Below the pieces are notes generated by a model. It ran no database searches, was not told the DNA's origin, and was given only the letters and a program-made list of their open reading frames with translations. The translations under genes were made by a program, and so were the position numbers. From Alphaproteobacteria bacterium (GTDB lineage: Bacteria > Pseudomonadota > Alphaproteobacteria > CAAHEQ01 > UBA3637): a stretch of DNA of 37,119 nucleotides. Position 1 is the stretch's first letter. Each line of letters starts with the position of its first letter. Location of the stretch: the NCBI GenBank assembly GCA_900772625.1, contig CAAHEQ010000099.1:1-37119 (forward strand). Reading direction: 5' to 3'. This document shows, in pieces, positions 2,587-27,782 of this stretch.

Positions 2587-3885
2587 ATGAGCAACATTTT
2601 TATTTTTGATAAATACGACTTTGATCCTCAGACAGGCATATTGGCTTTACACTATCAAAAAGAGGCGTATCATTTTGTTGAAACGATTACTTTTCCAAAT
2701 GCTCCATTGCATTTGTCCGATATGGCTTTGCAAGCGTTGGACGCCATTTTCCATTTGGCGCACATAGCGGCGGGGATCAGCTATTACAAAGCCTTTGCTG
2801 GTGCCGATATTCAAATCAACACGTGTGCACTTTCAAAGCCTGAAGCCGCATTTTTTAACGATTTTTATTTTTATGGTTTGGGGCAGTTCGCTTATCAAAA
2901 TAACTTAACACTTTCATTTGATTTTCCATATTCGGATAAAGCGCAAGAAAAGCCTTTTGCGCTCGACCTTGCTGACGCGGCGTTTGTGCCTGTGGGAGGC
3001 GGCAAGGACAGCTCTGTGACAACCGAGCTTTTGCGTTTGGCGGGTATGCCCTTGACGCTGGTTTCCATTAACTCTGCACGCCCGATTGAGGATTGCAAAA
3101 AGGTTGCACACCTGCCACAGATGGTAATCTTGCGCCAAATCAGCCAAGTGTTGTTGCAAAACAACGCCCATTTTTTGAATGGACACGTGCCTATTACTGG
3201 GATTTTAGCTTTTATTTTGTGGGCAGCAAGCGTGATTTACGACAAGCGTTTTGTTGTGATGAGTTGTGAAAAAAGCGCGGACGAGGGCAACTTTAACCAC
3301 GTCAACCACCAATGGAGCAAGTCATCACAATTCGAACAAAGCTTTTACCGCTTAACGCAATCAATTACGCCGCAGTTTCGGTATTTTTCGCTTTTGAGGC
3401 CTTTTTCGGAAATGCAAATTGCCGCCTTGTTCGCCGAATATTGTGCAGATTATTTTGATGTGTTTACAAGTTGCAATCATGCTTTTCATATTGATACGCA
3501 AAAGCGCCTTGAGCGTTGGTGTGGCGCGTGCGATAAATGCCGTTTTGTGTTTTTAATTCTAGCACCGTTTATCGAACGAAACAAGTTAATTGATATTTTT
3601 GGCTGTAATCCATTGAATGACCCAGCGCAAGAGCAGGGGTATTTGGAATTATTTGGGTTGGCGGGCTTTAAGCCATTCGAGTGTGTCGGCACGCTGTCCG
3701 AGTGCCGCTTAAGCTTAATCAAGCTTTCGCAAAAGCCCGAATGGAAAGACGATTTTATTGTCAAAAAAATGATAAAATCCATAGATTTATCGCAAGAGGA
3801 AACTTTGATGCGGCAGGTGTTTTCTCCCTCGGACAGCCCGCTTATCGAGCAAAGGTTTATAAAATGTTTGAAGATAAAAAAATAG
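2587..3885 (+). CDS. murL: PP-loop ATPase-like protein, candidate UDP-MurNAc-L-Ala-L-Glu epimerase (MurL-like)
   Basis: I chose the internal ATG at 2587 (MSNIFIFDKYDF...). The tracked ORF start at 2416 overlaps the divergent Sel1 gene. About 432 aa. PP-loop-like motif VPVGGGKDSSV and a C-terminal Cys cluster WCGACDKCRF. The gene overlaps the downstream MurD-like ligase by 22 nt. The family call is from memory of the Xanthomonas MurD2/MurL pair. Confidence 0.55.
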   Translation: MSNIFIFDKYDFDPQTGILALHYQKEAYHFVETITFPNAPLHLSDMALQALDAIFHLAHIAAGISYYKAFAGADIQINTCALSKPEAAFFNDFYFYGLGQFAYQNNLTLSFDFPYSDKAQEKPFALDLADAAFVPVGGGKDSSVTTELLRLAGMPLTLVSINSARPIEDCKKVAHLPQMVILRQISQVLLQNNAHFLNGHVPITGILAFILWAASVIYDKRFVVMSCEKSADEGNFNHVNHQWSKSSQFEQSFYRLTQSITPQFRYFSLLRPFSEMQIAALFAEYCADYFDVFTSCNHAFHIDTQKRLERWCGACDKCRFVFLILAPFIERNKLIDIFGCNPLNDPAQEQGYLELFGLAGFKPFECVGTLSECRLSLIKLSQKPEWKDDFIVKKMIKSIDLSQEETLMRQVFSPSDSPLIEQRFIKCLKIKK

Positions 3886-5123
3886 TCATTTGGGGCAACG
3901 GCCGTGAAGGCAAAGCACTTTGTTCATACTTTGCATCACAGGGGCGTGATGTGCCTGTGATAGAGGGCAAAGACGTTGATTTTACGGGCTATGATGTTGT
4001 GTTTAAAAGCCCAGGGATCAGCCTTTATACACCGTGCTTGCAACGCGCGTTGCAAGCAGGCGTTATGGAGTTTTCGGCGACAAACTTGTTTATGGCGATG
4101 CGCCCAAAGACAATGAAAACGATTGCTGTGACTGGCACAAAAGGTAAAAGTACTACTTCATCATTATTATATTACTTGTTGAAAAATAAAGGATTTAATG
4201 TTGGCTATGGCGGCAATATTGGCAAGCCTCTTGTCCAGATGATTGGCGATACTTATGACTATTTTGTTGCCGAGCTTTCCAGCTATCAGTGTGCAGATTT
4301 ACGCTATCCATTTGATATTGCGGTTGTGACAAACTTGTATCCAGAGCACATCGATTGGCACAAAACGCACGAGCGGTATTATGAAGATAAGCTCAACTTA
4401 TTGCGCGTTCGTCATGCGGGGCAAAAAGCGGTTATTAACTGGCAAAACACGGAAACGTTGGTACGGACAAAAGATATGGCCGACTTATTATATTTTAACG
4501 CGCCAAATGCTATTCATTTGTCGGACGGATTTGTTATGGATGGCAGTAAGCCTTTGTTTAAAACGGCTTGCATAACAAACCTGAAAGGTGAACATAATTT
4601 TGAAAATATCTGTGCCGTGCTGACGGTGCTCAAAGCGCTCGGGATTGATTTGGAAGGCATTGAAAAAGATATTGCAACCTTTGAAGCTCTGCCTCATCGC
4701 TTACAAACCGTGGCAAATGTTCAAGGGGTGCAATATGTGGATGACAGCATTTCAACAACGCCTGAAACAGCTTTGGCTGCTTTAAGAGCCTTTGAAGCTT
4801 GCGCGCATCATATTTATTTGCTCGTAGGCGGTTATGATCGTCAACAAGACTATTCCATTTTGCTGGACTATATACGCCAAAATGCATTGGATTTGGTGAC
4901 GTTGATTACAATGCCTGTGACGGGAAAAAGAGTGGCTAAAAAAGCCAAAGAAGAGGGCGTTTTGTTTATTGAAACTGCCTCCGTTTCGGATGCAGTGCAC
5001 ACAGCACAAGCCGCCGCCGTTCAAGGTGATGTTGTGTTGTTATCCCCTGCTGCGCCAAGCTATCACGCTTATAAAAGCTTTGAAGAGCGTGGTGCGGATT
5101 TTGCCGCCGCGATTGAAAAATAA
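3864..5123 (+). CDS. murD2: Mur ligase family, MurD-like UDP-MurNAc-L-Ala:glutamate ligase outside a dcw cluster (MurD2-like)
   Basis: Start taken at the ATG at 3864 (MFEDKKIVIWGNGREGKAL...). Rossmann-type GNGREG, Mur ligase P-loop GTKGKSTT, MurD-like DDSISTTPE, and LLSPAAPSYHAYKSFEERGADF at the C-terminus. It is coupled to the upstream PP-loop gene. Confidence 0.75.
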   Translation: MFEDKKIVIWGNGREGKALCSYFASQGRDVPVIEGKDVDFTGYDVVFKSPGISLYTPCLQRALQAGVMEFSATNLFMAMRPKTMKTIAVTGTKGKSTTSSLLYYLLKNKGFNVGYGGNIGKPLVQMIGDTYDYFVAELSSYQCADLRYPFDIAVVTNLYPEHIDWHKTHERYYEDKLNLLRVRHAGQKAVINWQNTETLVRTKDMADLLYFNAPNAIHLSDGFVMDGSKPLFKTACITNLKGEHNFENICAVLTVLKALGIDLEGIEKDIATFEALPHRLQTVANVQGVQYVDDSISTTPETALAALRAFEACAHHIYLLVGGYDRQQDYSILLDYIRQNALDLVTLITMPVTGKRVAKKAKEEGVLFIETASVSDAVHTAQAAAVQGDVVLLSPAAPSYHAYKSFEERGADFAAAIEK

Positions 5124-5197
5124 TCCATTATTTTGCGTATTGCTACAAAAGTTTTAAGCGCCATTTTTTTTATAGAGGTCTACTTTTTTATTGACGT

Positions 5198-5305
5198 CTA
5201 TCTGTTGGCCCCCATTTTTATCCGACACGCAGTACACTGTCCACAACGGACTTGTCGAATTGTGTCAAACTTCGTTTTTACCAAAGTAGGATAGGGACAT
5301 TTCAT
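5198..5305 (-). pseudogene. truncated N-terminus of a rolling-circle replication initiator (Microviridae VP4-like), 35 codons
   Basis: GGAGGT lies 8 nt before the ATG. Translation is MKCPYPTLVKTKFDTIRQVRCGQCTACRIKMGANR*. The pattern C-x-x-P...CGQCxxCR resembles the conserved N-terminal motif of gokushovirus Rep proteins, which are normally about 300 aa. Confidence 0.3.
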
Positions 5306-5346
5306 AAACGAATACCTCCACGCATTTTACGGTTAATTGAACGAAT

Positions 5347-5406
5347 TCAGCGGCCTTTGCGAATAATTCTACGCAAACGGCGAGCCTTAACTCTCATTCT
5401 ACGCAT
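5347..5406 (-). CDS. 19-aa arginine-rich peptide (microvirus DNA-packaging/J- or ORF8-like)
   Basis: AAGGAGGTG lies upstream. Translation is MRRMRVKARRLRRIIRKGR*. It sits immediately before the Rep-like stub, as the small basic ORF does in gokushoviruses. Confidence 0.25.
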   Translation of the reverse strand: MRRMRVKARRLRRIIRKGR

Positions 5407-5422
5407 TCCACATCACCTCCTT

Positions 5423-5602
5423 TCAAATTGTATCGTTGTTAATTTCGGCCAAAATGTCGGCCATAAGCTCTTTATCTTCACTGGGCTTAATCACCAATAA
5501 CGCACGGCGCAGCAACTTTTCTTAACGCTCATACGCAAGTTTCCAGCGGTGAATGACTTGAGCTTGATTTTCAAATAAAGTTTTAAACATTTGTCTTTTC
5601 AT
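5423..5602 (-). pseudogene. small ORF interrupted by an in-frame TAA (unknown function)
   Basis: AAGGAG SD at 5612-5617 (shown as ctcctt on the plus strand). Translation is MKRQMFKTLFENQAQVIHRWKLAYER*EKLLRRALLVIKPSEDKELMADILAEINNDTI*. The internal stop is at 5522-5524. Confidence 0.3.
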
Positions 5603-5618
5603 AATTTTTTACTCCTTT

Positions 5619-5646
5619 ACTATACATAATATAAATTATGCGACAA
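5619..5646 (-). other. dif-like XerC/XerD recombination site
   Basis: The minus strand reads TTGTCGCATAA-TTTATA-TTATGTATAGT. E. coli dif is GGTGCGCATAA-TGTATA-TTATGTTAAAT. That is 20/28 identical, and 18/19 across the core CGCATAAT.TATATTATGT. Confidence 0.5.
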
Positions 5647-6011
5647 TTATATGAGAGAAAAAGAGGGGCGGTATATATAACTTTTCTTTTGTTTTCAATG
5701 TGTTATAATGACAAATCAATCCCCTGTGGATAACTTTGTGAGTAAGTTTGTTGCAGTGTGTGGAAACCTTTATTGAGAATAAAAAACCTCGTCTTATGTT
5801 GGAAAATCGGCTCAGCTGTATCACTAATCTGGGACAAAATATCGCCTATAGCTTTCCTATATCGCGCGTAAACGCTTTTGCGGCAAGGACAGATTTCTTT
5901 GCTGAGTTTTAGTGGCATTGAGATGCGGTTAATGCTTTTTATTTAACGGGCACAGTTTTACTATTTTGCGAAGCTCTGGTACAGGAACACGAAAAATGTC
6001 CAACTTTTTTC

Positions 6012-6030
6012 CGAAAGCCCTCCTCTTATT
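6012..6030 (-). repeat. copy 2 of a 19-nt 'stop + strong SD' module
   Basis: The minus strand reads AATAAGAGGAGGGCTTTCG. It is 17/19 identical to 6196-6214. No usable start codon or ORF follows. Confidence 0.5.
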
Positions 6031-6195
6031 GCTGGTATGAAAACTGACAGAGCGTTTCGCAATTTGTTATCAGTCTCCAGGCTTGGACGTTTGCTAATTT
6101 GGTTTTATCGCAGATTTCACTTTATGAATGTCGTTCCTGTTATTTAGCTGCCGCATCCCACTATAAAACGAAACAAAGCGTCCGCTAAAGGTTAT

Positions 6196-6214
6196 CAAAA
6201 GCCCTCCTTTTATT
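6196..6214 (-). repeat. copy 1 of a 19-nt 'stop + strong SD' module
   Basis: The minus strand reads AATAAAAGGAGGGCTTTTG. It is 17/19 identical to 6012-6030. Confidence 0.5.
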
Positions 6215-6432
6215 AAATCTGTATTATGCTCAACATCGGTAAAACGGACGCATCGGTGTTCCGTTGAATGCACGAATTTTAGCGTTCTTAGAGATAAGAG
6301 CAACGATGCAAAATTGCCCCTCCCCCTGCTCTAGTATTGGAAAGCTATTAATTATGTTTTCTGATAAAAGGCACCAAACTTAAGTTAAATTTGATGCCCA
6401 TAATAAATTATATAAGCCGTTAAAATGCGGAT

Positions 6433-7275
6433 TTAAGACTTTTGACCTTGCTTAACTTTGGCTAAATTCGCGACATTAACGCCATTTTTGTCCGATTTTT
6501 GCAAAGCCAATTTCCGTGCCAATTTCCGTTCAACATTCTTTTTGGCTAATGCCAATTTCCGGCCATTTTCAACATTCTTTTTGGCCTCGGACGTCCAAGT
6601 ATATTCGTTATTCAAACGCTTACGGGCGCTGTCGATAGCAAAATACATTTCATCAACCGTTTCGATTTTACCAAAAGCATAATATAGTAAAGCTGGTTCG
6701 ACAACATTGTGCGCATCGTGTTCCATACGTTGCGGGTTTTTGTAATTTTTATTTTGCGCATCTGCGCCAAAGCCCAGACTATTGAACGTCAAAATGTCCT
6801 TCAGACCATCGCCAACAAACTGGTGCGCTTCACCAAACACATTATTGTGATCACGAAAAGCATGCGCCATTTCGGGGATCAGATCGGAAAAGCAACCAGG
6901 CACCAGCCAAATCGTGCCACGACCAAACAACGAAGGCTCATAATGCGGCGTTTTCTGCTGCTTTCCTTTTTCAATGATTTTGCTCATTAAGTTCATATTG
7001 TCATCTGTTTGTTCCAGAATTTCAGGATAGCCACTCAACCGCGAAAGCGTGTACATACGATTGAGCAGTTCGAGTGCGCCTTCTGGATCTCTGCTACAGT
7101 TTTTTGCAAAGCGTTCCAAATTCTTTTTCGTTTCCTTACTTTGCGGAGAAATAAGCTCTTCATACATATTGCCAAAAACCGCCAGTTGTTCAGAAGCAGG
7201 AAACTGTGAAATTGCGGACCTTTCTTTGCCGTTAAACGAGTATGTCGCAAGGCCCTTTTGTCGTGCTTGACGCAA
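6433..7275 (-). CDS. orphan hypothetical protein; probably frameshift-disrupted, with the true start likely at the ATG at 7361
   Basis: The 280-aa ORF starts only at a TTG with no SD. A better start (ATG at 7361, preceded by AGAGAGAGAGAAAT) lies in another frame. The two frames join by a 1-nt change at the A6 run at 7283-7288. I recognised no family. The C-terminus is Lys-rich and repetitive (KKNVENGRKLALAKKNVERKLARKLAL). Confidence 0.5.
   Translation of the reverse strand: MRQARQKGLATYSFNGKERSAISQFPASEQLAVFGNMYEELISPQSKETKKNLERFAKNCSRDPEGALELLNRMYTLSRLSGYPEILEQTDDNMNLMSKIIEKGKQQKTPHYEPSLFGRGTIWLVPGCFSDLIPEMAHAFRDHNNVFGEAHQFVGDGLKDILTFNSLGFGADAQNKNYKNPQRMEHDAHNVVEPALLYYAFGKIETVDEMYFAIDSARKRLNNEYTWTSEAKKNVENGRKLALAKKNVERKLARKLALQKSDKNGVNVANLAKVKQGQKS
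6506..6585 (-). repeat. imperfect tandem repeats inside the 3' end of the orphan gene
   Basis: gccaatttccgt occurs twice in perfect tandem (6506-6529), with a third near-copy at 6551-6562. tcaacattctttttggc occurs twice (6530-6546 and 6569-6585). Confidence 0.8.
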
Positions 7276-7493
7276 TGCAGTATTTTTTCGCCACCCAACA
7301 AAGTCGCACCCGCGGTAAGCCGCGCCATTGAAATGCTCGTTAATTTATTCTTCAGTCCCATATTTCTCTCTCTCTTTACGATTTAGTCTGCATACTTTTA
7401 TATATTTATTGTAGCTTTATTATCAGCAAACGTCAAAACAATTTGGGGAAAAATAGCGCCGCCCTGCTCGGTCTCAGAGCCCAAAAAAAGCAC

Positions 7494-7527
7494 AAAAAAA
7501 ACTCCCCTGCCCGTCAAGGCAGAGGAG
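7494..7527 (-). terminator. intrinsic terminator of ppdK
   Basis: The minus strand reads CTCCTCTGCC-ttgac-GGCAGGGGAG. This is a 10-bp stem with one G-U pair, followed by T8. It starts 24 nt after the ppdK stop. Confidence 0.8.
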
Positions 7528-7550
7528 CTTTTCGTATCCTTTAAAAAGAA

Positions 7551-10208
7551 TTACTTGCTTGCTTTTGCAGCAGCTTGAGCAGCAGCCAAACGTGCAATAG
7601 GAACACGATATGGAGAGCAAGATACGCCGTCCAAGTATTCGTTCAAGAATTCAATGGACTTCGGATCGCCACCGTGCTCACCGCAGATCGACAAGTATAA
7701 GTTTGGATTTGTCGAACGACCGTCTTTGCAAGCCATTGCAATCAACTTACCAACGCCTTGAGCGTCCAAAGATTGGAACGGATCGCGTTCGTAAATGCCT
7801 TTTGCAACGTATGTTGGCAAGAATGAGCCAGCATCGTCACGGCTCATACCCAAAGTTGTTTGAGTCAAGTCGTTTGTACCGAATTCAAAGAAGTCAGCGA
7901 TTGTTGCGATTTCATCAGCCAACAAAGCGGCACGAGGCAATTCAATCATTGTGCCAACAAAGTATTCAATCTTTTTGCCTTTTTCAGCAAAGACTTTTTC
8001 AGCTGTTTCGTCAATAATCTTCTTGCAGATTTCCAATTCTTTCTTGGAGGAGATCAAAGGAACTTCAATTTCTGGAATGACCTTGAGGCCTTTGTCTGCA
8101 ACGATCAAAGCAGCTTCAATGATCGCGCGTGTTTGCATTTCACAGATTTCTGGGAACACAACAGCCAAACGGCAACCACGCAAGCCGAGCATTGGGTTTG
8201 CTTCGTGCAATTGAGCTGTACGAGCTTGAATTTCTTCAACTGTCACACCCAATTCTTGAGCAATCTTAACTTGGTCTTCTTTCTTTTGTGGCAAGAATTC
8301 GTGCAAAGGTGGATCCAATAAACGAATTGTCACAGGCAAGCCTTCCATAATTTCGAACAACTTCGCAAAGTCATCACGTTGGTATGGCAACAATTTTGCC
8401 AAAGCATTACGACGAGAAGCTTCATCTTTTGCCAAAATCATTTCACGCATGTGGTTGATTCGACCTGGGTCGAAGAACATGTGTTCTGTACGGCACAAAC
8501 CAATACCTTGAGCACCGAACTTACGAGCTGTTTGAGCATCCAATGGTGTTTCAGCATTTGCACGAACTTTCACTGTGCGGATTTCATCAACCCAACCCAT
8601 GAATTCGCCAAAGTCGCCGACCATTTCTGGAACAACCAAAGGCAAAGCACCCTTCATCACTTGACCTGTCGTACCATCGAGGGAGATCATATCGCCTTCT
8701 TTCATGATGACATCGCCAACTTTCAAGAACTTGCCTTCATAGTCAATGCGCAATTCAGCAACGCCAGACACGCAAGGACGACCCATACCACGAGCCACAA
8801 CGGCCGCGTGAGATGTCATACCACCACGAGCTGTCAAAATACCTTGAGAAACGTGCATACCAGCAATGTCTTCTGGAGATGTTTCAACACGAACCAAAAC
8901 GACCTTTTTGCCTGTTGCAGCAACTGTTTCAGCATCTTTTGCGTTGAAGACGATTTGACCAACCGCAGCACCTGGAGATGCTGGCAAGCCAGTTGCAATG
9001 ACTTCACGTTTTGCGGATTTGTCGAACATTGGGTGCAACAATTGATCCAATTGTGCAGGTTCTACACGCAAAACAGCTTCTTTCTTTGTCAACAAGCCTT
9101 CACGAACCATATCAACCGCGATTTTCAAAGCAGCTGGGCCTGTGCGCTTACCATTACGTGTTTGCAACATCCACAATTTGCCGTCTTGGATAGTGAATTC
9201 CATATCTTGCATATCTTTGTAGTGTGCTTCCAATTTTGCACGAATATCAGACAATTGTTTGAATAATTCAGGGAATTCGTCTTCCATACATGGCAAATCG
9301 ATGCCGCGGCGTTCTTTGACTAAACGAGTCATTGGTTGAGGTGTACGAATACCAGCCACAACGTCTTCGCCTTGAGCATTCTTCAAATACTCACCATAGA
9401 AATAGTTTTCACCAGTTGCAGGGTCACGAGAGAAGCAAACACCAGTTGCCGAGTTGTCACCCGAGTTGCCGAACACCATTGTTTGGACGTTCACAGCTGT
9501 ACCCCAGTCGCCTGGAATGTTGTTTAGCTTACGATAGTAAATAGCACGGTCGACCATCCAAGAACCGAACACAGCGCCGATACCGCCCCACAATTGATCT
9601 TGAGGGTTTTGTGGCAAAGGTTTGCCTTCGTCTTCACAGATTTTTTTGAATTCTGCGATAACGTCTTTCAATTGCTCAACAGTCATTTCGTTATCGAACT
9701 TGTAGCCGTTTTCTTCGCGAACGCGATCCAAAACGTGTTCGAATTTGTGGCTGTCCACACCCATCACAACGTCAGCATACATTTGAATGAAACGGCGGTA
9801 GGAGTCGTAAGCAAATCTTTCGTTGCCAGAAACTTTTGCCAAACCTTTAACAGTTTCGTCATTCAAACCGAGGTTCAAGACTGTATCCATCATACCAGGC
9901 ATAGAAACGCGAGCGCCCGAACGAACAGAGAACAACAATGGATTTTCAGCATCGCCAAATTTTTTGCCCATTTTTGCTTCGATACCAGCCAAAGCAGCTT
10001 CAACAGCTGGCTTCAATTCTGCTGGGTATGTGTGGTTGTTTTCATAATAATATGTACAAACTTCTGTAGTAATCGTGAAACCTGGAGGAACAGGAACACC
10101 AATGCTTGCCATTTCTGCCAAGTTAGCGCCTTTACCACCCAACAAGTTTCTCATATCTGCGCGACCTTCAGCTTGTCCGTCGCCAAACGTGTAAACCCAT
10201 TTTGTCAT
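7551..10208 (-). CDS. ppdK: pyruvate, phosphate dikinase
   Basis: 885 aa. MTKWVYTFGDGQAEGRADMRNLLGGKGANLAEM..., phosphohistidine region GGMTSHAAVVARGMG, and C-terminal PEP-utilising TIM domain (GLCRTEHMF, FFEFGTNDLTQ, CGEHGGDP). Confidence 0.97.
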   Translation of the reverse strand: MTKWVYTFGDGQAEGRADMRNLLGGKGANLAEMASIGVPVPPGFTITTEVCTYYYENNHTYPAELKPAVEAALAGIEAKMGKKFGDAENPLLFSVRSGARVSMPGMMDTVLNLGLNDETVKGLAKVSGNERFAYDSYRRFIQMYADVVMGVDSHKFEHVLDRVREENGYKFDNEMTVEQLKDVIAEFKKICEDEGKPLPQNPQDQLWGGIGAVFGSWMVDRAIYYRKLNNIPGDWGTAVNVQTMVFGNSGDNSATGVCFSRDPATGENYFYGEYLKNAQGEDVVAGIRTPQPMTRLVKERRGIDLPCMEDEFPELFKQLSDIRAKLEAHYKDMQDMEFTIQDGKLWMLQTRNGKRTGPAALKIAVDMVREGLLTKKEAVLRVEPAQLDQLLHPMFDKSAKREVIATGLPASPGAAVGQIVFNAKDAETVAATGKKVVLVRVETSPEDIAGMHVSQGILTARGGMTSHAAVVARGMGRPCVSGVAELRIDYEGKFLKVGDVIMKEGDMISLDGTTGQVMKGALPLVVPEMVGDFGEFMGWVDEIRTVKVRANAETPLDAQTARKFGAQGIGLCRTEHMFFDPGRINHMREMILAKDEASRRNALAKLLPYQRDDFAKLFEIMEGLPVTIRLLDPPLHEFLPQKKEDQVKIAQELGVTVEEIQARTAQLHEANPMLGLRGCRLAVVFPEICEMQTRAIIEAALIVADKGLKVIPEIEVPLISSKKELEICKKIIDETAEKVFAEKGKKIEYFVGTMIELPRAALLADEIATIADFFEFGTNDLTQTTLGMSRDDAGSFLPTYVAKGIYERDPFQSLDAQGVGKLIAMACKDGRSTNPNLYLSICGEHGGDPKSIEFLNEYLDGVSCSPYRVPIARLAAAQAAAKASK

Positions 10209-10379
10209 GGATGTATTTATCCTTTCTTTAAATTAAACATCAAAGCCACAACTGTATGCTGGAAAACCATAGTTTTAAGCGCATACAGGTATGCTTTTTT
10301 TAAACGGATAATTTTTAGCACGCTTTTAAATTAAATGCAAGCGTTTTTTTACAACATTTTGTATTTAAAGTAAGAAGCC

Positions 10380-12236
10380 CTATTCTTCCAGCTTTTCACT
10401 CAACTCAAGCCAGCGATTTTCATTTTGTTCGACTTGCTTGTTCAGCTCGGCTAATTCCTTTTGTAAGTCGACCATTTGAGCAGGCAAAAGCTGGCCTGTA
10501 AACAGGTTTTCGATATCGGCAATACGCCTGTTGGCTTTACTTAAAAACTCTTCAATGCGCTTGATTTCGTCCCGAATGGGGCGCAAGGCTGCATGCTTAG
10601 CGGCTTGCATTTGGCGCTTTTCTTTGGGACTGAGCACAGGAGCTTTTTCTTTTGCTTCCTCAGAGGCAGGCGTTTTAGTCGCCGATAAAACCAGCTTTTT
10701 ATACGCATCAATGTCTTCATCAAACGGTTTGCACGTGCCGTTTGCAACCAACCACAAGCGGTCGGCCACCGTTTCGATTAAATGCATATCGTGCGTAATT
10801 AAAATCACTGCGCCAGCATAAGCGTTCAGCGCTTCAACAAGCCCGTCTCTGGCCTCGATATCAAGGTGGTTTGTGGGCTCGTCCAAAATCAGTAAGTTCG
10901 GCCGATCGCACGTAATGCCAGCAAACAAAAGCCGCGCTTTTTCGCCACCCGAAAGCTTATCAATTTGCGTGAGCGCTTTTTGCCCTTCCAGACCAAAACG
11001 TGCTAAGTGAGTACGGATTTTCGTCTCGTTTGCACCTTTTATTAAAGAGCCGATATACATCACAGGTGTTTGCCCAAATGGCAAAAGCTCTGTTTGGTGT
11101 TGCGCAAAATAGCCTATTTTCAGCTTTTTTGACGCCGTCATTTCGCCCGTAAACAAAGGCAATTTGCCATCCAGCAATTTTGCCAGCGTAGACTTACCAT
11201 TTCCGTTTGCTCCGAGCAATGCAATGCGGTCGTCTTTATCGATTTGCAAGTTAAGCTTTGAAAGAATTTCTTTGCCCTGCTCATAACCCGTAGAGCCATT
11301 TTCCATTTTAATAATTGGTGAGACAAGCTCGTCTGGTTCTGGAAACGAAAAATGCGTAAAAGCTGTTTCATAATCAACGACTTGCATTGACAAGCGCTCC
11401 AACATCTTTAAGCGGCTTTGCGCCTGTTTTGCCTTTGTGGCCTTATAGCGGAAACGGTCGACAAAAGATTGCAAATGCTTGCGTACGTTTTCTTGCTTTT
11501 CCAACATTTTTTGCTGCAGATTCTGTTGCTCGGCGCGCGTGCGCAAATACGTATCATAGTTGCCGTTATAAGTATTGAGTTTTTTGCATTCGAAATGCAC
11601 AATCATATTGCACAGATTGTTTAAAAAGTTGCGGTCATGAGAAATCAGTAAAAGCGATCCGCGATATTTTTGTAAAAAGCTCAACAGCCACATCGAGCTT
11701 TCCAAATCCAAGTGGTTGGTGGGCTCGTCCAGCAGTAAAATATCGGAGGGTTGAAACAACGTTCCTGCCAGCGCGACCCGCATACGCCAACCGCCCGAAA
11801 ACTCGGACAAAGTACGGTAAAAGTCGCTGTCTTTAAATCCCAAACCTTTTAAGATTTGGCAAGCTCGAGCATTGGCCGAATCGGCCTTAATTGCGCTAAG
11901 GCGTTCATAAATGGCGGGTAATTCAATATCGGGGGCTGTTTCAAGCGCCTTTAAAAGCGCTTCCCTCTCGGTATCTTTGGATAAAATAAACGGCAAAATG
12001 CCAACGGAAGTGTCCGCAATTTCCTGCGCCATAAAGGCCAGCCTAGACGATGTCGGATAGCTGATTTGTCCGTCCTCGAGTGATATTTCGTTTTGGATTG
12101 CTTTAAACAACGTGGATTTGCCGCAACCATTAAAGCCGACAAGGCCAACTTTTTTGTTGTCAGGGATATGTGCGCTGGCGTGCTCCAGCAAAGTTTTACC
12201 ACAAATGCGGATAGTAATGTCATTTAAATCTATCAT
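10380..12236 (-). CDS. ABC-F family ATPase (Uup/YheS-like; two ABC domains, linker and C-terminal coiled coil)
   Basis: Start taken at the internal ATG at 12236 (MIDLNDITIRICGK...). Walker A motifs GFNGCGKST and GANGNGKST, signature motifs LSGGWRMR and LSGGEKAR, and no transmembrane domain. Confidence 0.9.
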   Translation of the reverse strand: MIDLNDITIRICGKTLLEHASAHIPDNKKVGLVGFNGCGKSTLFKAIQNEISLEDGQISYPTSSRLAFMAQEIADTSVGILPFILSKDTEREALLKALETAPDIELPAIYERLSAIKADSANARACQILKGLGFKDSDFYRTLSEFSGGWRMRVALAGTLFQPSDILLLDEPTNHLDLESSMWLLSFLQKYRGSLLLISHDRNFLNNLCNMIVHFECKKLNTYNGNYDTYLRTRAEQQNLQQKMLEKQENVRKHLQSFVDRFRYKATKAKQAQSRLKMLERLSMQVVDYETAFTHFSFPEPDELVSPIIKMENGSTGYEQGKEILSKLNLQIDKDDRIALLGANGNGKSTLAKLLDGKLPLFTGEMTASKKLKIGYFAQHQTELLPFGQTPVMYIGSLIKGANETKIRTHLARFGLEGQKALTQIDKLSGGEKARLLFAGITCDRPNLLILDEPTNHLDIEARDGLVEALNAYAGAVILITHDMHLIETVADRLWLVANGTCKPFDEDIDAYKKLVLSATKTPASEEAKEKAPVLSPKEKRQMQAAKHAALRPIRDEIKRIEEFLSKANRRIADIENLFTGQLLPAQMVDLQKELAELNKQVEQNENRWLELSEKLEE

Positions 12237-12283
12237 AATGCGCTCTTTTATAGTTGATTTTTTGAAAAATGTCAAAGAAAAGC

Positions 12284-12312
12284 TTGTAAAAAGCAAAACT
12301 TTTTTCTATTAT
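12284..12312 (+). promoter_or_regulatory. candidate sigma70 promoter for the metallophosphoesterase gene
   Basis: TTGTAA, 17 nt spacer, TATTAT. It ends 26 nt upstream of the ATG at 12339. Confidence 0.35.
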
Positions 12313-12338
12313 TCTTTCAAAAAGAAAGAGAAACTTTT

Positions 12339-13208
12339 ATGCGCACCATTGGACTTATTTTTACATTTGTTGTTTTCTTATTATTTTTAACAATACTGGC
12401 CTTAATTGGGGCGTTATTTGGCTTGTTTTTCGCGCCTGTTTGGTTGTTTGTTGCGGCGGGTGCTTTGGTTGCGCTCAGCACTTTTTTGGGGACGCGAGCG
12501 CCCAGCATTTGCCGTTTAAAGCTAAAGGCTGGGCTTGATAAGCCCGTTAAAATAGTCCAGCTGAGCGATTTGCATATCGGCTCTGGCTTTGGCAAGCGGT
12601 GGCTGGCTGATGTGGTGCAAAAGACAAATGCTCTTGCGCCCGATGTTGTGCTGATTACGGGTGATTTAATTGATGGCGTGCCCGCAACTTTGATGGACGA
12701 GCTGATGCCTTTGAGTCAAATCAAAGCCCCTGCTTATTTTGTGTGGGGCAATCATGAGTATTATTACGGCTTGAACAAGTGGCGACAAGCATTTGAAAAA
12801 CTTGGATTAAAGTTGTTGGAAAACAATGCTGTTTTATTCTCGGGGCTTGCTATTGGGGGTGTAGGTGTTCCATATGCTGACGCAGTGGGCGCTCCTGCTC
12901 CCGATTTAGCGCAAACATTTGCTCGAGTGCCTGTGACGGCGCGGCGTCTTTTATTGTCGCACTATCCTGAAGTGTTTGACAAAGCTATACATCACAATAT
13001 CTTTTTGCAGCTGTCAGGCCACACGCACGGCGGACAATTTTTCTTTCCGCTGTCGTGGCCTACAAAGCGCGCAAATGCGGGGTATTTGAAAGGTCTGTAC
13101 TGCAAAGGCAATCAGTTTTTATACGTCAGTCAAGGGACGGGACTTTGGGGAGGCTTGCCTGTCAGGTTGGGCACGTACCCCGAAATCACGCTATTTGAGC
13201 TATCTTAA
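12339..13208 (+). CDS. membrane-anchored metallophosphoesterase (calcineurin-like)
   Basis: 289 aa. N-terminal transmembrane helices. Motifs DLHIG, GDLIDG, GNHEYY and GHTHGGQ. Confidence 0.88.
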   Translation: MRTIGLIFTFVVFLLFLTILALIGALFGLFFAPVWLFVAAGALVALSTFLGTRAPSICRLKLKAGLDKPVKIVQLSDLHIGSGFGKRWLADVVQKTNALAPDVVLITGDLIDGVPATLMDELMPLSQIKAPAYFVWGNHEYYYGLNKWRQAFEKLGLKLLENNAVLFSGLAIGGVGVPYADAVGAPAPDLAQTFARVPVTARRLLLSHYPEVFDKAIHHNIFLQLSGHTHGGQFFFPLSWPTKRANAGYLKGLYCKGNQFLYVSQGTGLWGGLPVRLGTYPEITLFELS

Positions 13209-14242
13209 TCTTGTTTCTTTTCGATAAAGCACGCATCACCATAAGAGAAAAAGCGGTAATACGCGTCTATGGCGTGTTGATAAGCTTTTTTCATCACGTC
13301 CGTACCCGCAAACGCGCATACCAACATAAACAATGTGCTTTGTGGCAAATGAAAGTTTGTAAACAAAACATCAACGAAACGAAAGCGATAACCAGGTGTG
13401 ATAAATATCGATGTTTCTTCAGAAAATGGGTGAATAACGCCCTGCTCATCGGTTGCACTTTCAAGCAAGCGCATTGCTGTTGTGCCGACCACGATAATGC
13501 GTCTGCCCTCGCGTTTAGCTTGGTTCAATCGGTCTGCTACTTGTTTTGTAATAATGCCGTATTCGGCGTGCATTTTATGATCTTTTGTATCCGCAACTTT
13601 GACAGGTAAAAACGTTCCGCCACCGACATGCAGCGTTAAAAACTCCTCTTGAACGCCCTTTTGTTTGATTTGTTGCATCAGCTCTTTGGTAAAATGCAAG
13701 CCCGCAGTCGGTGCTGCAACAGCACCTTCGTGTTTTGCATAAACCGTCTGATAATTGGCTTTGTCGGTTTCCTCGCCGCTTTTCCCGCGCTTGATATAAG
13801 GCGGTAAAGGCATAATGCCGTGCACATGCAAGGCAGCAAATAAATCTGGGCCGCTTTTGTTAAATTGCAATGTCACAGGGCCGTCCGCGTCTTTGGCAAG
13901 TACTTGCGCGCTAAAATCACCGCCGAACACAACATTGTCGCCAATTTTTAAACGGCGTGCATTTTTAATCAAGCATTTCCATGTCGATAAATCAATTTGC
14001 TTGAGCAAGGTCGCCTCGATGCTGGCCTCGCCACGCTTGCCGTAAATGCGGGCAGGAATAACTTTTGTATCGTTAAAAACCAACACATCGCCTTTTTTCA
14101 GCAAAGATGGCAAATCACGGATGATTTTATCCTCAAGTCCCGTTTGCGTAATATGCAACAAGCGCGCGCTGTCACGCGGACTGGCTGGTTCGTTTGCTAT
14201 TCTATCGGCAGGCAGATCAAAATTGAAAATATCAACACGCAT
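13205..14242 (-). CDS. queA: S-adenosylmethionine:tRNA ribosyltransferase-isomerase
   Basis: 345 aa. MRVDIFNFDLPADRIANEPASPRDSARLL..., LPPYI and AAPTAGLHFT are typical of QueA. Confidence 0.95.
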   Translation of the reverse strand: MRVDIFNFDLPADRIANEPASPRDSARLLHITQTGLEDKIIRDLPSLLKKGDVLVFNDTKVIPARIYGKRGEASIEATLLKQIDLSTWKCLIKNARRLKIGDNVVFGGDFSAQVLAKDADGPVTLQFNKSGPDLFAALHVHGIMPLPPYIKRGKSGEETDKANYQTVYAKHEGAVAAPTAGLHFTKELMQQIKQKGVQEEFLTLHVGGGTFLPVKVADTKDHKMHAEYGIITKQVADRLNQAKREGRRIIVVGTTAMRLLESATDEQGVIHPFSEETSIFITPGYRFRFVDVLFTNFHLPQSTLFMLVCAFAGTDVMKKAYQHAIDAYYRFFSYGDACFIEKKQD

Positions 14243-14254
14243 TTTATTTATTCT

Positions 14255-14761
14255 TTAAAAATCGATATCCGTAGAATCGTCTTTAATTTCATCCTCGTTA
14301 AAGGCAACATAGTTTTCAACAAGCTCGATTTGTTCCGAAACGACATAATCGAACATATCTTCAAACGAGCCAAAAGCTTTAATTAAAGAGCCTTCAAACT
14401 CGTCAATGATTTGGAACTTTTTGCGCGCTGGGTTATAAATGAAGTTCTCATCATCGGAATGCCCCAAAATAACGCATCCTTTTTTGTCGGGATTGAGCGC
14501 TTGGAAAATACGGTTTTGAGAATATAAATCCGTAATGTTTAATCCGCGGCGCTTATCAGTGTGTGTGCTGGCTCCAAAAAACTCCATACCACCCCAAAAT
14601 ACGCCGTCAGAGGTAAACAATAATTCGGCATATTCATCGGGCAATTCCACCCCTAATCCTTTCAAATCTTGTGAAACTTTTTCAAATTGCTCATCCGTCA
14701 TTGCAGGCGCTTTAAACACGCCGCCGACATCTTCCATTTTTAATAAATTTTCTTTAAACAT
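14255..14761 (-). CDS. SMI1/KNR4 (SUKH-1) family protein, immunity-protein-like
   Basis: Start taken at the ATG at 14761 (MFKENLL...), with SD AAAGGGAG 6 nt upstream. LPDEYAELLFTSDGVFWGG is the typical SUKH-1 core. The C-terminus is acidic. Confidence 0.6.
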   Translation of the reverse strand: MFKENLLKMEDVGGVFKAPAMTDEQFEKVSQDLKGLGVELPDEYAELLFTSDGVFWGGMEFFGASTHTDKRRGLNITDLYSQNRIFQALNPDKKGCVILGHSDDENFIYNPARKKFQIIDEFEGSLIKAFGSFEDMFDYVVSEQIELVENYVAFNEDEIKDDSTDIDF

Positions 14762-14862
14762 AGTTGCTCCCTTTGAATAACATTTGCTCATCATAGGATT
14801 GATTTATTAACAAAAAGTTTAGCAACACACATTTTTATGCATTTATTATCAATAGCCAGATG

Positions 14863-16281
14863 TTAAACCAAAGCGATATGCAAAACGTTTGTATTGCCCT
14901 TTTCAGCAATTGGCATACCAGCCGTGATAATCAATGCATCGCCTTTGTGAGCCAAGCCTTTTTCGGCTGCCGTTTGGCGCGCCACAGGAATGACTTGATT
15001 GAGCTCGGATAGCAACTCTGTTTTCACGGAATACACGCCCCACGCAAGGGTCAGCTTACGCATCACCTCGTCCGAGCAGGTCAGGTTCAAAGTCGGAATC
15101 GTGGTTCTTTGACGAGCAACACGTAAAGCTGTTGCGCCAGACAGCGAATAAGTCACAACACACGCCGCATTTTCCAAAACTTTGGCCATAGTCGGTACAG
15201 CCGATGTAATTGCTGAAGCGACTAAATGGTCGGCGGGCAGCGAAATGACGTCCATAGACTTTTTATAAAAAGCATCTTCTTCTGTGTGCAAAATGACTTT
15301 GCGCATCATCGATACCGCCATAACGGGGTACTCCCCAACCGCTGTTTCGCCCGAAAGCATCACGCAATCAACACCGTCATAAACGGCCGTAGCAACATCG
15401 GAAACTTCCGCTCTTGTTGGAGTTGGATTATGAATCATACTTTCCAACATTTGGGTTGCGATGATAACGGGTTTACCTTTAGCACGGCATTTTTGCACAA
15501 TGCTTTTTTGAAGCGATGGCAAATCTTCAATTGGGCATTCAACGCCCAAATCACCACGCGCCACCATAATCGCGTCCGACAAATCAATGATTTCATCAAT
15601 ATTTTGAAGTGCTGCAGGCTTTTCAACTTTGGTAATAATTGCGGCTCTGTCTTTGATGATTTTGCGCGCGTGTTTTAAGTCTTCTGGACGCTGTACGAAC
15701 GACAGAGCGATCCAGTCTGCGCCCAGCTCAAGCGCCGTATCCAAATCAACCAAATCCTTTTTTGTCAGTGCTGAGATAGGCAGCGTCACATTCGGAACAT
15801 TAACGCCTTTGTGGTCAGACAAAACGCCGCCCGTAATCACGCGCGTGTTGGCAAAATCTTTGCCACAATCGAGAACTTCCAAGCGAATCAAGCCGTCATT
15901 TAAAAGCAGATGTGTTCCTTTTTCCAAAACGGCAAAAATCTCTTTGTGCGGCAACTCTACGCGCTTTTCATTGCCGAGCGTTTTATCCATATCAAGGCGG
16001 AAGTAATCGCCCGACTTGAGCACAATCGAGCCTTTTTTAAAGCGTCCTACGCGCAATTTAGGCCCTTGCATATCGCAAATAATGCCGATAGGCATTCCAA
16101 GGTGCTTTTCGGCCGCACGAATATATTGTACGTTTTGCGCATGGCCTTGCTTATCGCCGTGACTGAAGTTCAAACGAAAGAGGTTAGCGCCTGCATGTAC
16201 CAGCTCTTCAATGCGATGTGCTGAAGATGTCGCAGGCCCTAATGTCGCAATGATTTTGGTAAATGGTAATCTTTTTTTCAT
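14863..16281 (-). CDS. pyk: pyruvate kinase
   Basis: 472 aa. TKIIATLGPATSS, RLNFSHG and MVARGDLGVE motifs. Confidence 0.96.
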   Translation of the reverse strand: MKKRLPFTKIIATLGPATSSAHRIEELVHAGANLFRLNFSHGDKQGHAQNVQYIRAAEKHLGMPIGIICDMQGPKLRVGRFKKGSIVLKSGDYFRLDMDKTLGNEKRVELPHKEIFAVLEKGTHLLLNDGLIRLEVLDCGKDFANTRVITGGVLSDHKGVNVPNVTLPISALTKKDLVDLDTALELGADWIALSFVQRPEDLKHARKIIKDRAAIITKVEKPAALQNIDEIIDLSDAIMVARGDLGVECPIEDLPSLQKSIVQKCRAKGKPVIIATQMLESMIHNPTPTRAEVSDVATAVYDGVDCVMLSGETAVGEYPVMAVSMMRKVILHTEEDAFYKKSMDVISLPADHLVASAITSAVPTMAKVLENAACVVTYSLSGATALRVARQRTTIPTLNLTCSDEVMRKLTLAWGVYSVKTELLSELNQVIPVARQTAAEKGLAHKGDALIITAGMPIAEKGNTNVLHIALV

Positions 16282-16293
16282 TATTTCCTCGTC

Positions 16294-17196
16294 TTATATC
16301 CCGCTGACTGTTAACGTCATTTGTCCTGTAATCGTTTCGGCGCCCCCAATACTTTGAATGCCCGTTCCGACAACACCGCGCGAGGCAAGGTTAAACGCAT
16401 TGCACGCCATTGATGTTGGCTCAAGGCAGAAAAAGTTTTTTCTGTAAGGAGCATATAGGACAAGATGCGAGAAATGTTCATCTGTCTTAATGTCTAGCTG
16501 CATACCAAACTTTGGCCATTTGACCATCGCATTGCCGTCAAAGCCACCAAAGCATGTGTCAAAGACAGAAGCGGAAAGTTCTCGAGGTTGTACAAACGAC
16601 CACTCTTGTGGTGTATGATAAGGCTTATCAATCGGATCATTTTCGTGATACCAAACATTTTTGGAATTAAATCTTAATGTGACATTTGGCGTGCGGTTGA
16701 AATATGGGTGAATCCCAAAGCCACACGGCATCGGCATAATGCCATTGTTTTTAATCGACAGTTCAATATCCAGCGACTTATCTTTTAAAGTATAAACCAC
16801 ACAAGCATCATACGAAAATGGAAAGCCTTTGTCTTTTTCTTTGCTGTGTGACATGGCAAGCTTTACCGAAGTAGCCGATTTTTCTAGCACCTTCCACGCT
16901 GTGCGCCAGCCGTCACCATGAATCGGTTCAGCAAACATTGGGTGATTCGCGGGCACCGAGCGTTTGATTCCCCAATAGGTAAACTCACCGTCCTTGATTC
17001 GATGCGTATAAGGCAACATCAAAAACATTGCCATCCCGAGCGGGTCTCGTTTTGCCACTGCCGTAGCGGAGGCCGAACGCATCACGTCAAAGAGCTTTTC
17101 GCCCTTTGTGCGAAAGTACGTCAGCGCAGCCCCACATTCGGGCAAAACGCCTATTTCGATAAAATCATTAGCCAAGTGAATCACACTGTCAGACAT
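16294..17196 (-). CDS. aldose 1-epimerase family protein
   Basis: 300 aa. GIHPYFN motif and overall mutarotase-like pattern. It lies 3 nt downstream of the GGDEF gene stop. Confidence 0.8.
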   Translation of the reverse strand: MSDSVIHLANDFIEIGVLPECGAALTYFRTKGEKLFDVMRSASATAVAKRDPLGMAMFLMLPYTHRIKDGEFTYWGIKRSVPANHPMFAEPIHGDGWRTAWKVLEKSATSVKLAMSHSKEKDKGFPFSYDACVVYTLKDKSLDIELSIKNNGIMPMPCGFGIHPYFNRTPNVTLRFNSKNVWYHENDPIDKPYHTPQEWSFVQPRELSASVFDTCFGGFDGNAMVKWPKFGMQLDIKTDEHFSHLVLYAPYRKNFFCLEPTSMACNAFNLASRGVVGTGIQSIGGAETITGQMTLTVSGI

Positions 17197-17199
17197 TTT

Positions 17200-18252
17200 T
17201 TATTCCTTTGTTTTTTTGTGCTGAGAATGAGCCTTTAAATCTTGATTGGCACGCACTAACATTGCGTCAATCGAATCTTTATCGTCTTGTTTTGCAGCCA
17301 CACCAAACGCCGTTGTAATAAACGCATTGCCTATTTCTGTTTTCAAGTTTTGCTCTTGAATCTTAAGACGTAAACGCTCGATTAAGAACGGCACGTTTTC
17401 AAACGGTGTTTCGGGCAACAAAATCGCAAACTCGACATCGCCGATTCGCCCTAAGTAGTCTGAATCACGAATAGACTCTTTACAAATTTTAACCGTCTTT
17501 TGCAAAGCTTCATCGCCAAAGCTGTAGCCGAACTCTTGACCTAAAACGCGGAAGTGATCCAACTTTAAGATCAACAACGACAATGTGCGGTTATAGCGAA
17601 TAGCACGTTTTAATTCTTTTTCACCGTACTCCAAGAAAGCCGAGCGGTTCAACACCCCCGTCAGCGGATCAATCGATGTTAAGTATTTAAGCTTTTCTTC
17701 CAATTGCTTGCGGCGCGTAATGTCAAAGCCGACCGAGCGAATTTCAACGGGTTTGTTATCTTCATCATAAACTACGCGATTCGTCCACGAAACCCAAACA
17801 ATTGTGCCGTCTTTTTTCATATTCTTTGTTTCAACATCGACATAAAGTTGCGGGTTGATTAAAATGCGCTCGATCAAAGTAGGCTGAGAGCTGAGGCGCT
17901 TTTTGGGTTGAGGCGCAATCGTGCCCAACACAAGATGGCCAACCATTTCGTCTTTTGTATAGCCGAAAAACTCCATTGCATAATCGTTGACATACGTAAT
18001 GACGCCCTTTTGGTCAAAAGCCACAATAATACTTTTGGCTGTTTCATCCGAAAAGTCATCGCACAAATCATTTTTTTGTTTTTTCAGCTCTTCTAACTCC
18101 TTGCTTTGCTTTGCAAACGATTCGCTTGCGCTTTGCAAGTTTTTGCAGATTCGGTTGTGACGCAACCGCAAACCGACATAAAGGAAAATAAACAAACATG
18201 CAACAGTCGCGCAAACTGTTGCAAAAACCCAAACTTCAGTACAAGTTTCCAT
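17200..18252 (-). CDS. membrane-anchored PAS-GGDEF protein with a degenerate active site
   Basis: 350 aa. N-terminal transmembrane segment, then a PAS-like segment (GVITYVNDYAMEFFGYTKDEMVG). The GGDEF domain starts at DPLTGVLNRSAF, but the signature reads RIGDVEF instead of GGDEF/GGEEF. Confidence 0.8.
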   Translation of the reverse strand: METCTEVWVFATVCATVACLFIFLYVGLRLRHNRICKNLQSASESFAKQSKELEELKKQKNDLCDDFSDETAKSIIVAFDQKGVITYVNDYAMEFFGYTKDEMVGHLVLGTIAPQPKKRLSSQPTLIERILINPQLYVDVETKNMKKDGTIVWVSWTNRVVYDEDNKPVEIRSVGFDITRRKQLEEKLKYLTSIDPLTGVLNRSAFLEYGEKELKRAIRYNRTLSLLILKLDHFRVLGQEFGYSFGDEALQKTVKICKESIRDSDYLGRIGDVEFAILLPETPFENVPFLIERLRLKIQEQNLKTEIGNAFITTAFGVAAKQDDKDSIDAMLVRANQDLKAHSQHKKTKE

Positions 18253-22882: not shown

Positions 22883-22884
22883 AC

Positions 22885-27751: not shown

Positions 27752-27782
27752 AAAAAAAGGCAGAGCCATACGCCCTGCCCTT
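27752..27782 (-). terminator. intrinsic terminator after the ABC exporter gene
   Basis: The minus strand reads AAGGGCAG-ggcgtatggct-CTGCCTTT followed by a T run. It starts 8 nt after the stop codon. Confidence 0.55.

Follow-up and report, generated by a model that had tools for sequence, protein, structure and literature searches.

Integrative mobile elements exploiting Xer (IMEX) have no recombinase of their own and insert at dif by means of the host XerCD recombinases. Examples are CTXphi, VGJphi and TLCphi of Vibrio, Cf/phiLf of Xanthomonas and the gonococcal genetic island. These elements keep a functional dif at one end, and the other flank accumulates insertions. The known classes of phage attachment site (attP) are told apart by the arm, or the part of the central region, that is degenerate; TLCphi is without a proper XerD arm. 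We describe here a stretch of 37,119 nucleotides (the window) from an uncultured alphaproteobacterium, contig CAAHEQ010000099.1, in which a dif site directly abuts three short open reading frames (ORFs). We consider it very probable that this arrangement is a dif site with the adjoining, decayed remnant of a microvirus prophage, and this is the best explanation that we have for the locus.

None of the IMEX named above belongs to the Microviridae; they are filamentous phages, satellites or islands. Closer to the present case are the enterogokushoviruses of Escherichia and other Enterobacteriaceae, which integrate beside an unchanged host dif and for which xerC and xerD are needed in E. coli (Kirchberger and Ochman 2020, PMC7062461). 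Like these viruses, the phages related to the remnant are integrase-less Microviridae of 4.3-4.7 kb with a dif-like motif near the start of the Rep (VP4) block. Unlike them, they are linked to an uncultured gut or rumen alphaproteobacterium, their capsid is at most 56% identical to that of any GenBank microvirus, attP is separated from Rep by two small genes (ORF1 and the basic ORF2), and only about 10% of the prophage is left in the window. Xer-mediated integration has also been proposed for the Alpavirinae proviruses of Bacteroidetes (Krupovic and Forterre 2011, PMC3091885, as cited in PMC7062461). These proviruses and the Amoyvirinae prophages share with our locus the presence of integrated Microviridae in a bacterial chromosome but differ from it in host clade and phage lineage. 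According to the literature, microvirus prophages are already known in the Alphaproteobacteria, namely in Sphingomonadaceae, Hyphomicrobiales and Rhodobacteraceae. Xer-dependent microvirus lysogeny at dif is therefore not new in itself; what is new here is the host clade, the phage lineage and the design of attP.

Results

A dif-like site and three mini-ORFs

An earlier note, made from the letters of the window, had pointed to a dif-like site at 5619-5646 on the minus strand. Read from 5646 to 5619, this site is TTGTCGCATAATTTATATTATGTATAGT. It is identical to E. coli dif at 20/28 positions, and at 18/19 over CGCATAA-TGTATA-TTATGT; both of these counts, given in the note, were reproduced. The exact core CGCATAA-N6-TTATG occurs a single time in the window even when one mismatch is permitted, a setting at which shuffled sequences contain a mean of 0.25 occurrences. 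It is this core, and not the overall Hamming match, that makes the site specific, and the window holds one copy of dif.

The site also compares well with published examples. Carnoy and Roten (2009, PMC2731167) predicted a dif for Magnetospirillum magneticum whose XerC arm is identical at 11/11 positions to the arm in the window, TTGTCGCATAA. The XerD arm of the window is similar to the Rhodobacter and Bordetella arms in the same set, and the whole site fits the alphaproteobacterial and betaproteobacterial dif sites published there. In common with the proteobacterial sites of that survey, it is 28 bp long, intergenic and AT-rich, with the inner palindromic arms CATAA and TTATG. It differs from them in having TTTATA instead of TGTATA as its central region and an XerD arm that ends in TATAGT.

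The three minus-strand mini-ORFs that the note had listed next to dif (59 codons with an in-frame TAA, 19 aa and 35 codons) are all present (Table 1). The sequence AAAGGAG begins 1 base after dif and precedes ORF1; the ribosome-binding sites GAAAGGAGG and GGAGG precede ORF2 and ORF3, respectively. In the window, ORF2 encodes MRRMRVKARRLRRIIRKGR before a TGA stop. The 19-aa basic peptide of the note thus exists, with the correction that the protein originally had 34 aa. ORF3 encodes MKCPYPTLVKTKFDTIRQVRCGQCTACRIKMGANR, which begins MKCPYP and contains CGQCTACR. Its stop lies 74 nt from that of murD2, where the note had estimated about 75 nt, and the two genes are convergent.

Table 1. Coordinates of features at and around the dif site in the window
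Feature	Coordinates	Strand	Description
Predicted chromosomal dif	5619..5646	-	XerC arm TTGTCGCATAA 5646-5636; central region TTTATA 5635-5630; XerD arm TTATGTATAGT 5629-5619
Microvirus-derived DNA	5223..5635	-	From the crossover point in dif to the deletion junction in Rep; what is left of a phage genome of ~4.27 kb
ORF1 pseudogene	5423..5602	-	59 codons, in-frame TAA 5524-5522; homologue is a 60-aa microvirus protein of unknown function
ORF2, small arginine-rich protein	5302..5406	-	Originally 34 aa; window form 5406-5347, 19 aa, TGA 5349-5347
Rep/VP4 stub (ORF3)	5198..5305	-	Codons 1-29 (5305-5219) homologous to Rep; last six codons and stop are unrelated DNA past the deletion junction
Spacer	5124..5222	.	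Deletion junction to murD2 stop, 99 nt; no phage similarity
murD2, MurD-type ligase	3864..5123	+	~419 aa; Pfam Mur_ligase_M and Mur_ligase_C; flanks dif on the XerD-arm side; syntenic in L001-L003
Conserved dif neighbour, XerC-arm side	5690..5767	-	Perfect DnaA box TTATCCACA 5733-5725; imperfect boxes 5745-5737 and 5767-5759; ATAACACATTGAAAAC block
KOPS-type motif GGGGAGGG	6318..6325	-	Intergenic, aimed at dif
KOPS-type motif GGGCAGGG	7505..7512	-	Intergenic, aimed at dif
KOPS-type motif GGGCAGGG	27773..27780	-	Intergenic, aimed at dif

Microvirus homology of the mini-ORFs

Searches with the peptides, as the note had proposed, gave weak results. The stub matched phrog_942 at E = 0.068, a short-peptide search of PHROGs gave phrog_4600 at E = 0.003, no PHROG family was matched by ORF2 and no GenBank phage by ORF1. 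A protein search with the stub padded to 50 aa found only the stub of a sister strain. The stub had 87 weak tblastn matches among GenBank phages, and these were overwhelmingly to Microviridae; of the best 30 of the 87, 27 are annotated as Rep or VP4 and three are unannotated, and 27 start at query residue 1. The homologue of ORF1 led further, to microvirus contigs that carry all three genes. This homologue (P0005, 60 aa, 58% identical) is encoded on five small contigs, L074-L078, a phage lineage found only in Logan and ENA assemblies. One of these, L074, has a 30-nt terminal overlap, indicating a circular, complete Microviridae genome of 4,265 nt. Its products include a 283-aa Rep (phrog_942, E = 1e-92; PF23343) and a pilot protein (phrog_8689, E = 2e-21), and its major capsid protein is of the F type (Pfam E = 7e-134). 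No integrase was found in L074; Pfam and PHROGs name only the capsid, pilot and Rep proteins, and the other scanned products are without a named family.

In L074 and its four partial relatives, a 60-aa ORF, a 40-aa arginine-rich ORF and Rep follow one another in the same order as the three mini-ORFs of the window. The intact version of ORF1 is 58% identical over 59 aa to the 60-aa gene of L075, the version of ORF2 in the sister strain L072, MRRMRVNGRRLRRIIRKGRRIRSINRKMRGGIRL, is 68% identical to the 40-aa gene of L075, and the stub matches the N-terminus of the 283-aa L075 Rep at 16/29 residues (55%, BLASTP). A local tblastn of the stub gave E = 1.6e-6. At the nucleotide level, positions 5223-5646 align end to end with L074-L077 at 67% identity over 431-439 nt; the homology begins at the central region of dif and stops after TGTCG of Rep codon 28-29 (~5222). 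Three consecutive collinear homologues, together with this nucleotide identity, argue firmly that the mini-ORFs are phage-derived and, as judged from these alignments, microviral. The suggestion of the note that a small basic peptide followed by a Rep N-terminal motif mirrors a microvirus arrangement is borne out, as the homologues stand in viral order on bona fide Microviridae contigs. ORF2 resembles the small basic DNA-binding protein of microviruses, a putative role suggested by its composition and position.

The weakness of the short-peptide family searches, including the lack of a GenBank phage match for ORF1, would be expected if the mini-ORFs were ordinary small host genes or chance ORFs with a coincidental likeness to microviruses. 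We give this explanation next to no probability, as coincidence would have to produce three ORFs collinear with three consecutive microvirus genes at 55-68% identity, and nucleotide identity of 67% over ~430 nt. The collinear homology refutes it.

The nearest GenBank genomes to this lineage are microviruses from faecal metagenomes of lemurs, rodents and a tortoise. Rep is up to 59% identical to that of the nearest unclassified faecal Microviridae and 38% identical to VP4 of Gokushovirus WZ-2015a, these being BLAST neighbours. By the same measure, Rep and capsid appear to group with gut gokushovirus-like genomes and not with the small high-GC Amoyvirinae; this grouping is one of BLAST neighbours only. 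An exact search of IMG/VR with 24 nt of the host site found nothing, and one with the 17-mer shared by host and phage (see below) gave 30 matches, none related to this phage. The L074 genome also has a conserved intergenic stem-loop at 2738-2785 (AGCACAG, a 17-nt loop and CTGTGCT), between the genes for a 127-aa protein and the pilot protein, which might be a terminator or a priming signal for the complementary strand.

The phage attachment site and the junction

All five phage contigs carry TTTATATTATGTATAGT just upstream of the ribosome-binding site of ORF1. This sequence is identical at 17/17 positions to the central region and XerD arm of the host site. The 11 nt that precede it vary by genotype, being TTGTAGTATTT in L074, TGTATGGTTAA in L075 and L077, TTATTGTTTAA in L076 and TTGTAATTTTA in L078, and share 5-7 of 11 positions with the host XerC arm. 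Since the free phages lack the host XerC arm, the XerC arm in the window must be host DNA. A crossover in the central region predicts the order host XerC arm, central region, phage XerD arm and ORF1-ORF2-Rep, which is the arrangement in the window. The gokushovirus-type prophage imagined in the note is thus upheld as regards microvirus integration at dif, and revised in that attP lies upstream of ORF1 and not at Rep. In this attP the central region and XerD arm are invariant and the XerC arm is degenerate; in the enterogokushovirus motif (PMC7062461), the first 15 nt are conserved and the spacer and XerD arm are variable.

These observations suggest the following history. A single-stranded DNA microvirus of ~4.27 kb, integrase-less and carrying a dif-like attP upstream of its ORF1-ORF2-Rep block, would have entered the host, whose XerCD would have recombined the double-stranded replicative form with the chromosomal dif. 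As the phage XerD arm equals the host XerD arm, the left junction would re-form a perfect dif, followed by the phage ribosome-binding site and genes. A later deletion would have taken all that followed from Rep codon 29: the remaining part of that gene, the genes for the capsid, scaffold and pilot proteins, and the hybrid right-hand attR. The ~410 nt that are left would no longer be able to excise and would be decaying. That XerCD catalysed the integration is suggested by the junction inside dif and by the precedent in E. coli; the order of the strand exchanges is one that we infer.

The site as the chromosomal dif

If the 28-mer is the dif of the host, it should also be present where there is no phage. 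An identical 28-mer was found in at least nine other contigs of related uncultured gut and rumen Alphaproteobacteria. It lies directly downstream of murD2 in the three nearest species (L001, L002 and L003, whose MurD2 is 61-65% identical), and the 28-mer plus four extra bases is invariant across their comparison. It is also present on L079, from a diverged strain, and, in a metagenome scan, on six further contigs, L084-L089; the copy in L088 has ATG instead of TTG at its outer end. The interval from the murD2 stop to the site is 96 nt in L001, 640 nt in L002 and 175 nt in L003, and these sequences are unrelated. Hence, the comparison with relatives that the note had called for identifies the module as an insertion and not as a conserved spacer. 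The DNA on the XerD-arm side differs in every species, and conserved host DNA stays on the XerC-arm side. No such site was found within 10 kb of murD2 in loci L004 onward (MurD2 identity of 48% or less); synteny of dif and murD2 is restricted to the closest clade.

The distribution of FtsK-orienting polar sequences (KOPS) was analysed in eight distinct host loci, each oriented from XerC arm to XerD arm, by counting the FtsK-orienting motif GGGNAGGG. On the left (XerC) side there were 13 motifs on the plus strand and none on the minus strand; on the right (XerD) side there were none on the plus strand and 15 on the minus strand. Thus, 28/28 motifs are aimed at dif. An unbiased scan of all 7-mers for polarity placed GGCAGGG first, and GGCAGGG, GGGCAGG and GCAGGGC were all in the top four. 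In L003, L084, L085 and L088 there are motifs on both sides, with a strand switch exactly at dif. Relative to the local ORF, 12 of the 28 are sense, 10 antisense and 6 intergenic, a mixture which indicates that the polarity is not a by-product of the coding strand. Genes also converge on the site, the share of coding length aimed at dif being 74% for the XerC side and 65% for the XerD side; the note had described gene orientation as loosely compatible with a terminus. Conservation of the 28-mer across species, convergence of KOPS and convergence of genes lead us to assign it, from sequence, as the host chromosomal dif at the replication terminus. The conditional suggestion of the note, that the window contains the terminus if the site is the functional dif, is well supported by the presence of the 28-mer in related species without the module and by the uniform KOPS polarity.

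Several observations weigh against this reading, or against the integration proposed above. The Hamming distance to E. coli dif is not striking by itself, as the runner-up place in the window matches at 19/28. In the window species alone, the KOPS motifs number only three; they are all correctly oriented but lie on the same side of dif, and the two-sided convergence derives from related species. GC skew in the window tracks gene orientation, and at four-fold degenerate sites it shows no switch at dif; of the two signals that the note had named, the switch in KOPS polarity is found at the site and the GC-skew switch is not seen. No xerC, xerD or ftsK gene was found in the window, and the host is presumed to encode these enzymes elsewhere. 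Only 37 kb of this genome is at hand, and a second or better dif may exist elsewhere. A DnaA-box cluster beside dif (see below) is unexpected at a terminus and is unexplained. Finally, none of the host contigs was found to hold an intact prophage with its two junctions, bounded by dif and a hybrid attR; in the window only ~410 nt, or ~10% of a prophage, survive, and integration is reconstructed, not observed.

The first of these points, together with the uninformative GC skew and the partial genome, would allow the 28-mer to be a phage-borne or chance palindrome and the true dif to lie elsewhere. This is very improbable. The 28-mer is 100% conserved in species without the phage module, free phages are without the host XerC arm, all KOPS converge on the site whatever the gene strand, and a published alphaproteobacterial dif has the identical XerC arm.

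The DnaA boxes raise a different alternative. The window has a single perfect DnaA box, TTATCCACA at 5733-5725, accompanied by two imperfect ones, the three lying 80-120 nt from the site. A tandem pair of boxes (consensus TTAYNCACAAAGTTATCCACAGG) and a ATAAnnnATTGAAAAnAAAG block are present in 8/10 host loci, 55-105 nt from dif with variable spacing. The loci that share this cluster with the window are L001, L002, L003, L079, L084, L087 and L088, and it is absent from L085 and L086. The survey of Carnoy and Roten describes no such cluster, and we found no report in the literature of DnaA boxes adjacent to dif. Two to four boxes at the same place in seven other loci, plus a conserved AT-rich block, might be taken as a sign that the conserved block is oriC and not the terminus, an interpretation of extremely low probability. 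Genes converge on the site and do not diverge from it, and KOPS aimed at it from both sides are the signature of a terminus; on these two grounds the oriC reading was rejected. In addition, the boxes are few and in a single orientation, there is no dnaA, dnaN, parAB or hemE within the 37 kb, and two loci have dif without boxes.

Deletion, decay and recurrence

The note had viewed the module as a deletion remnant. In agreement with this, Rep codon 29 is where homology to the phage stops, and none of the host loci was found to carry a capsid, pilot or other phage gene. With ~90% of the prophage gone, attR among it, the remnant would be locked in place. When the spacer at 5124-5222 was compared with the microvirus contigs by blastn, the only matches were 11-13 nt long and at chance level; no attR or other phage DNA and no second dif-like site was found in this spacer. 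The same spacer has a different sequence in L079, which is outside the window's own species.

A series of stages is seen among strains of the same or closely related species. In L072 and L073, ORF1 is intact, ORF2 is intact at 34 aa and the Rep stub is present. In the window and L089, the stub is present, ORF1 is interrupted by TAA and ORF2 by TGA; the corresponding ORF1 codon is CAA in L072, L079 and the phages, and the ORF2 codon is AGA in L072. In L079, ORF1 is intact, ORF2 has a TAA at codon 17, and the Rep stub is absent, with no homology past the Rep ATG. The existence of sister strains in which ORF1 and ORF2 are intact, or in which the stub is missing, implies that the remnant is still eroding.

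It is also conceivable that the host has domesticated the module, for instance for superinfection exclusion or as a source of a small DNA-binding regulator from ORF1 and ORF2. Strong ribosome-binding sites are kept, L072 has both ORF1 and ORF2 intact, and L079 has an intact ORF1. A hand count of ORF1 in the window against L079 gave roughly 6 synonymous and 5 non-synonymous changes, which loosely suggests constraint, and resident gokushovirus DNA does give superinfection immunity in E. coli (PMC7062461). These substitutions are, however, too few for a test of selection. Both ORF1 and ORF2 have nonsense mutations in the window, in L079 ORF2 is broken by another nonsense mutation and the Rep stub is missing, the stub diverges by ~9% between strains as against 2% overall (mean column identity of 98%), and the module is absent from all other species with the same dif. 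We therefore regard domestication as unlikely, and the remnant is probably without function.

A second remnant is indicated in another species. In L002, between murD2 and dif (11296-11928), eight codons like the N-terminus of ORF1 (MDIQEVKI) come right after dif. Some 70 nt further on is a 49-nt stretch that is 86% identical to the intergenic hairpin of L074, and after it comes a 73-aa ORF that contains a hydrophobic segment. By these similarities, L002 carries what we identify as an independent and differently deleted microvirus remnant at the same site. Because this second remnant differs from the first and occupies the same place, Xer-mediated microvirus lysogeny appears to recur in this clade.

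Similar sites were noticed in three other sequences. Bajarodmic virus 140 (L082, PQ006236.1), from rodent faeces, has AAGACTCATAA-TGCATA-TTATGTATAGT at 3261-3288, upstream of Rep. Bajarodmic virus 1120 (L081, PQ007394.1), from the same type of source, has AGTGTGATAAA-TTTATA-TTATGTATAGA at 3019-3046, again upstream of Rep. Their XerD arms match the dif of this clade exactly or with one mismatch, which suggests that both viruses may be temperate on hosts with similar dif sites. In IMG/VR, a full dif-like site, AAGGCGCATAA-TTTATA-TTATGTATAGT, is present at 93-120 of L115 (IMGVR_UViG_3300028832_000331), ~100 nt from the end of a 37.8-kb contig, and L115 may be another element that borders a host dif.

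The host neighbourhood

The gene that precedes murD2 is of the murL epimerase type; the MurL- and MurD-type identities come from Pfam. The longest ORF for murD2 starts at GTG 3681 and overlaps murL by ~200 nt (window 3681-3885). Relatives back the start at ATG 3864 (419 aa, as called in L072), which leaves the usual short overlap. A scan of species-representative genomes for MurD2 found only metagenome-assembled genomes (MAGs) of uncultured gut and rumen Alphaproteobacteria; the source of L002 is a Hadza gut sample and that of L003 a yak rumen. Rfam gave no RNA family anywhere in the window, and a promoter scan of 5000-6500 found nothing above chance.

Synteny with the nearest species breaks at dif (L001 11400-14900, L002 11960-13600 and L003 11460-15040 versus window ~6400-25100). 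In L001-L003, 2-4 kb of unrelated accessory genes (ankyrin-repeat, Ser-rich and small ORFs) separate dif from an IHF-like gene and accD, in that order. In the window, accD is at 25188, and the ~19 kb in between hold housekeeping genes: ppdK, ABC-F, queA, pyk, a gene for a GGDEF protein, the suf operon and a gene for a Fic protein. The window, when aligned in this way, looks like the product of a rearrangement anchored at the terminus. On the XerC-arm side, the gene next to dif is a minus-strand ORF at 6433-7275 (280 aa) without a Pfam or PHROG match, whose C-terminus is lysine- and alanine-rich and repetitive; its equivalent in L072 is called as 389 aa. The region 23000-25100 has a low GC content (0.38 versus 0.44 overall), and two minus-strand ORFs in it (23796-24191 and 24279-24599), downstream of the Fic-domain gene at 22937-23743, are without a Pfam match.

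Discussion

The lysogeny of microviruses through host Xer recombination is an established phenomenon, and the locus described here is a solid extension of it and no surprise. It shows that Xer-mediated microvirus lysogeny extends beyond Enterobacteriaceae and Bacteroidetes. The host of most gut microviruses is unknown. In this case, the 17-nt identity between attP and dif, together with the integrated remnant, ties a faecal microvirus lineage to uncultured gut and rumen Alphaproteobacteria, and this host-linked lineage includes relatives of bajarodmic viruses 140 and 1120. The location of dif also fixes the murD2 region as the place of the terminus in these MAGs, which is useful for scaffolding and for estimates of growth rate from read coverage.

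To our knowledge, none of the known classes of attP combines a perfect XerD arm and central region with a degenerate XerC arm, a comparison that was not exhaustive. We advance, tentatively and with more doubt than confidence, a broader proposal: that a gut microvirus lineage may be temperate on uncultured gut and rumen Alphaproteobacteria by way of an undescribed class of attachment site, in which the central region and XerD arm are kept and the XerC arm is free, and that, separately, dif may be coupled to a conserved DnaA-box cluster in this host clade. If the first part of this proposal is true, there would be an XerD-anchored pathway of integration, distinct from the CTX, VGJ, TLC and enterogokushovirus modes. 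If the second is true, the coupling of dif and DnaA boxes would hint that the replication initiator is linked to what takes place at the terminus. The design of the phage attP and the DnaA boxes beside dif are both features that are open to experiment.

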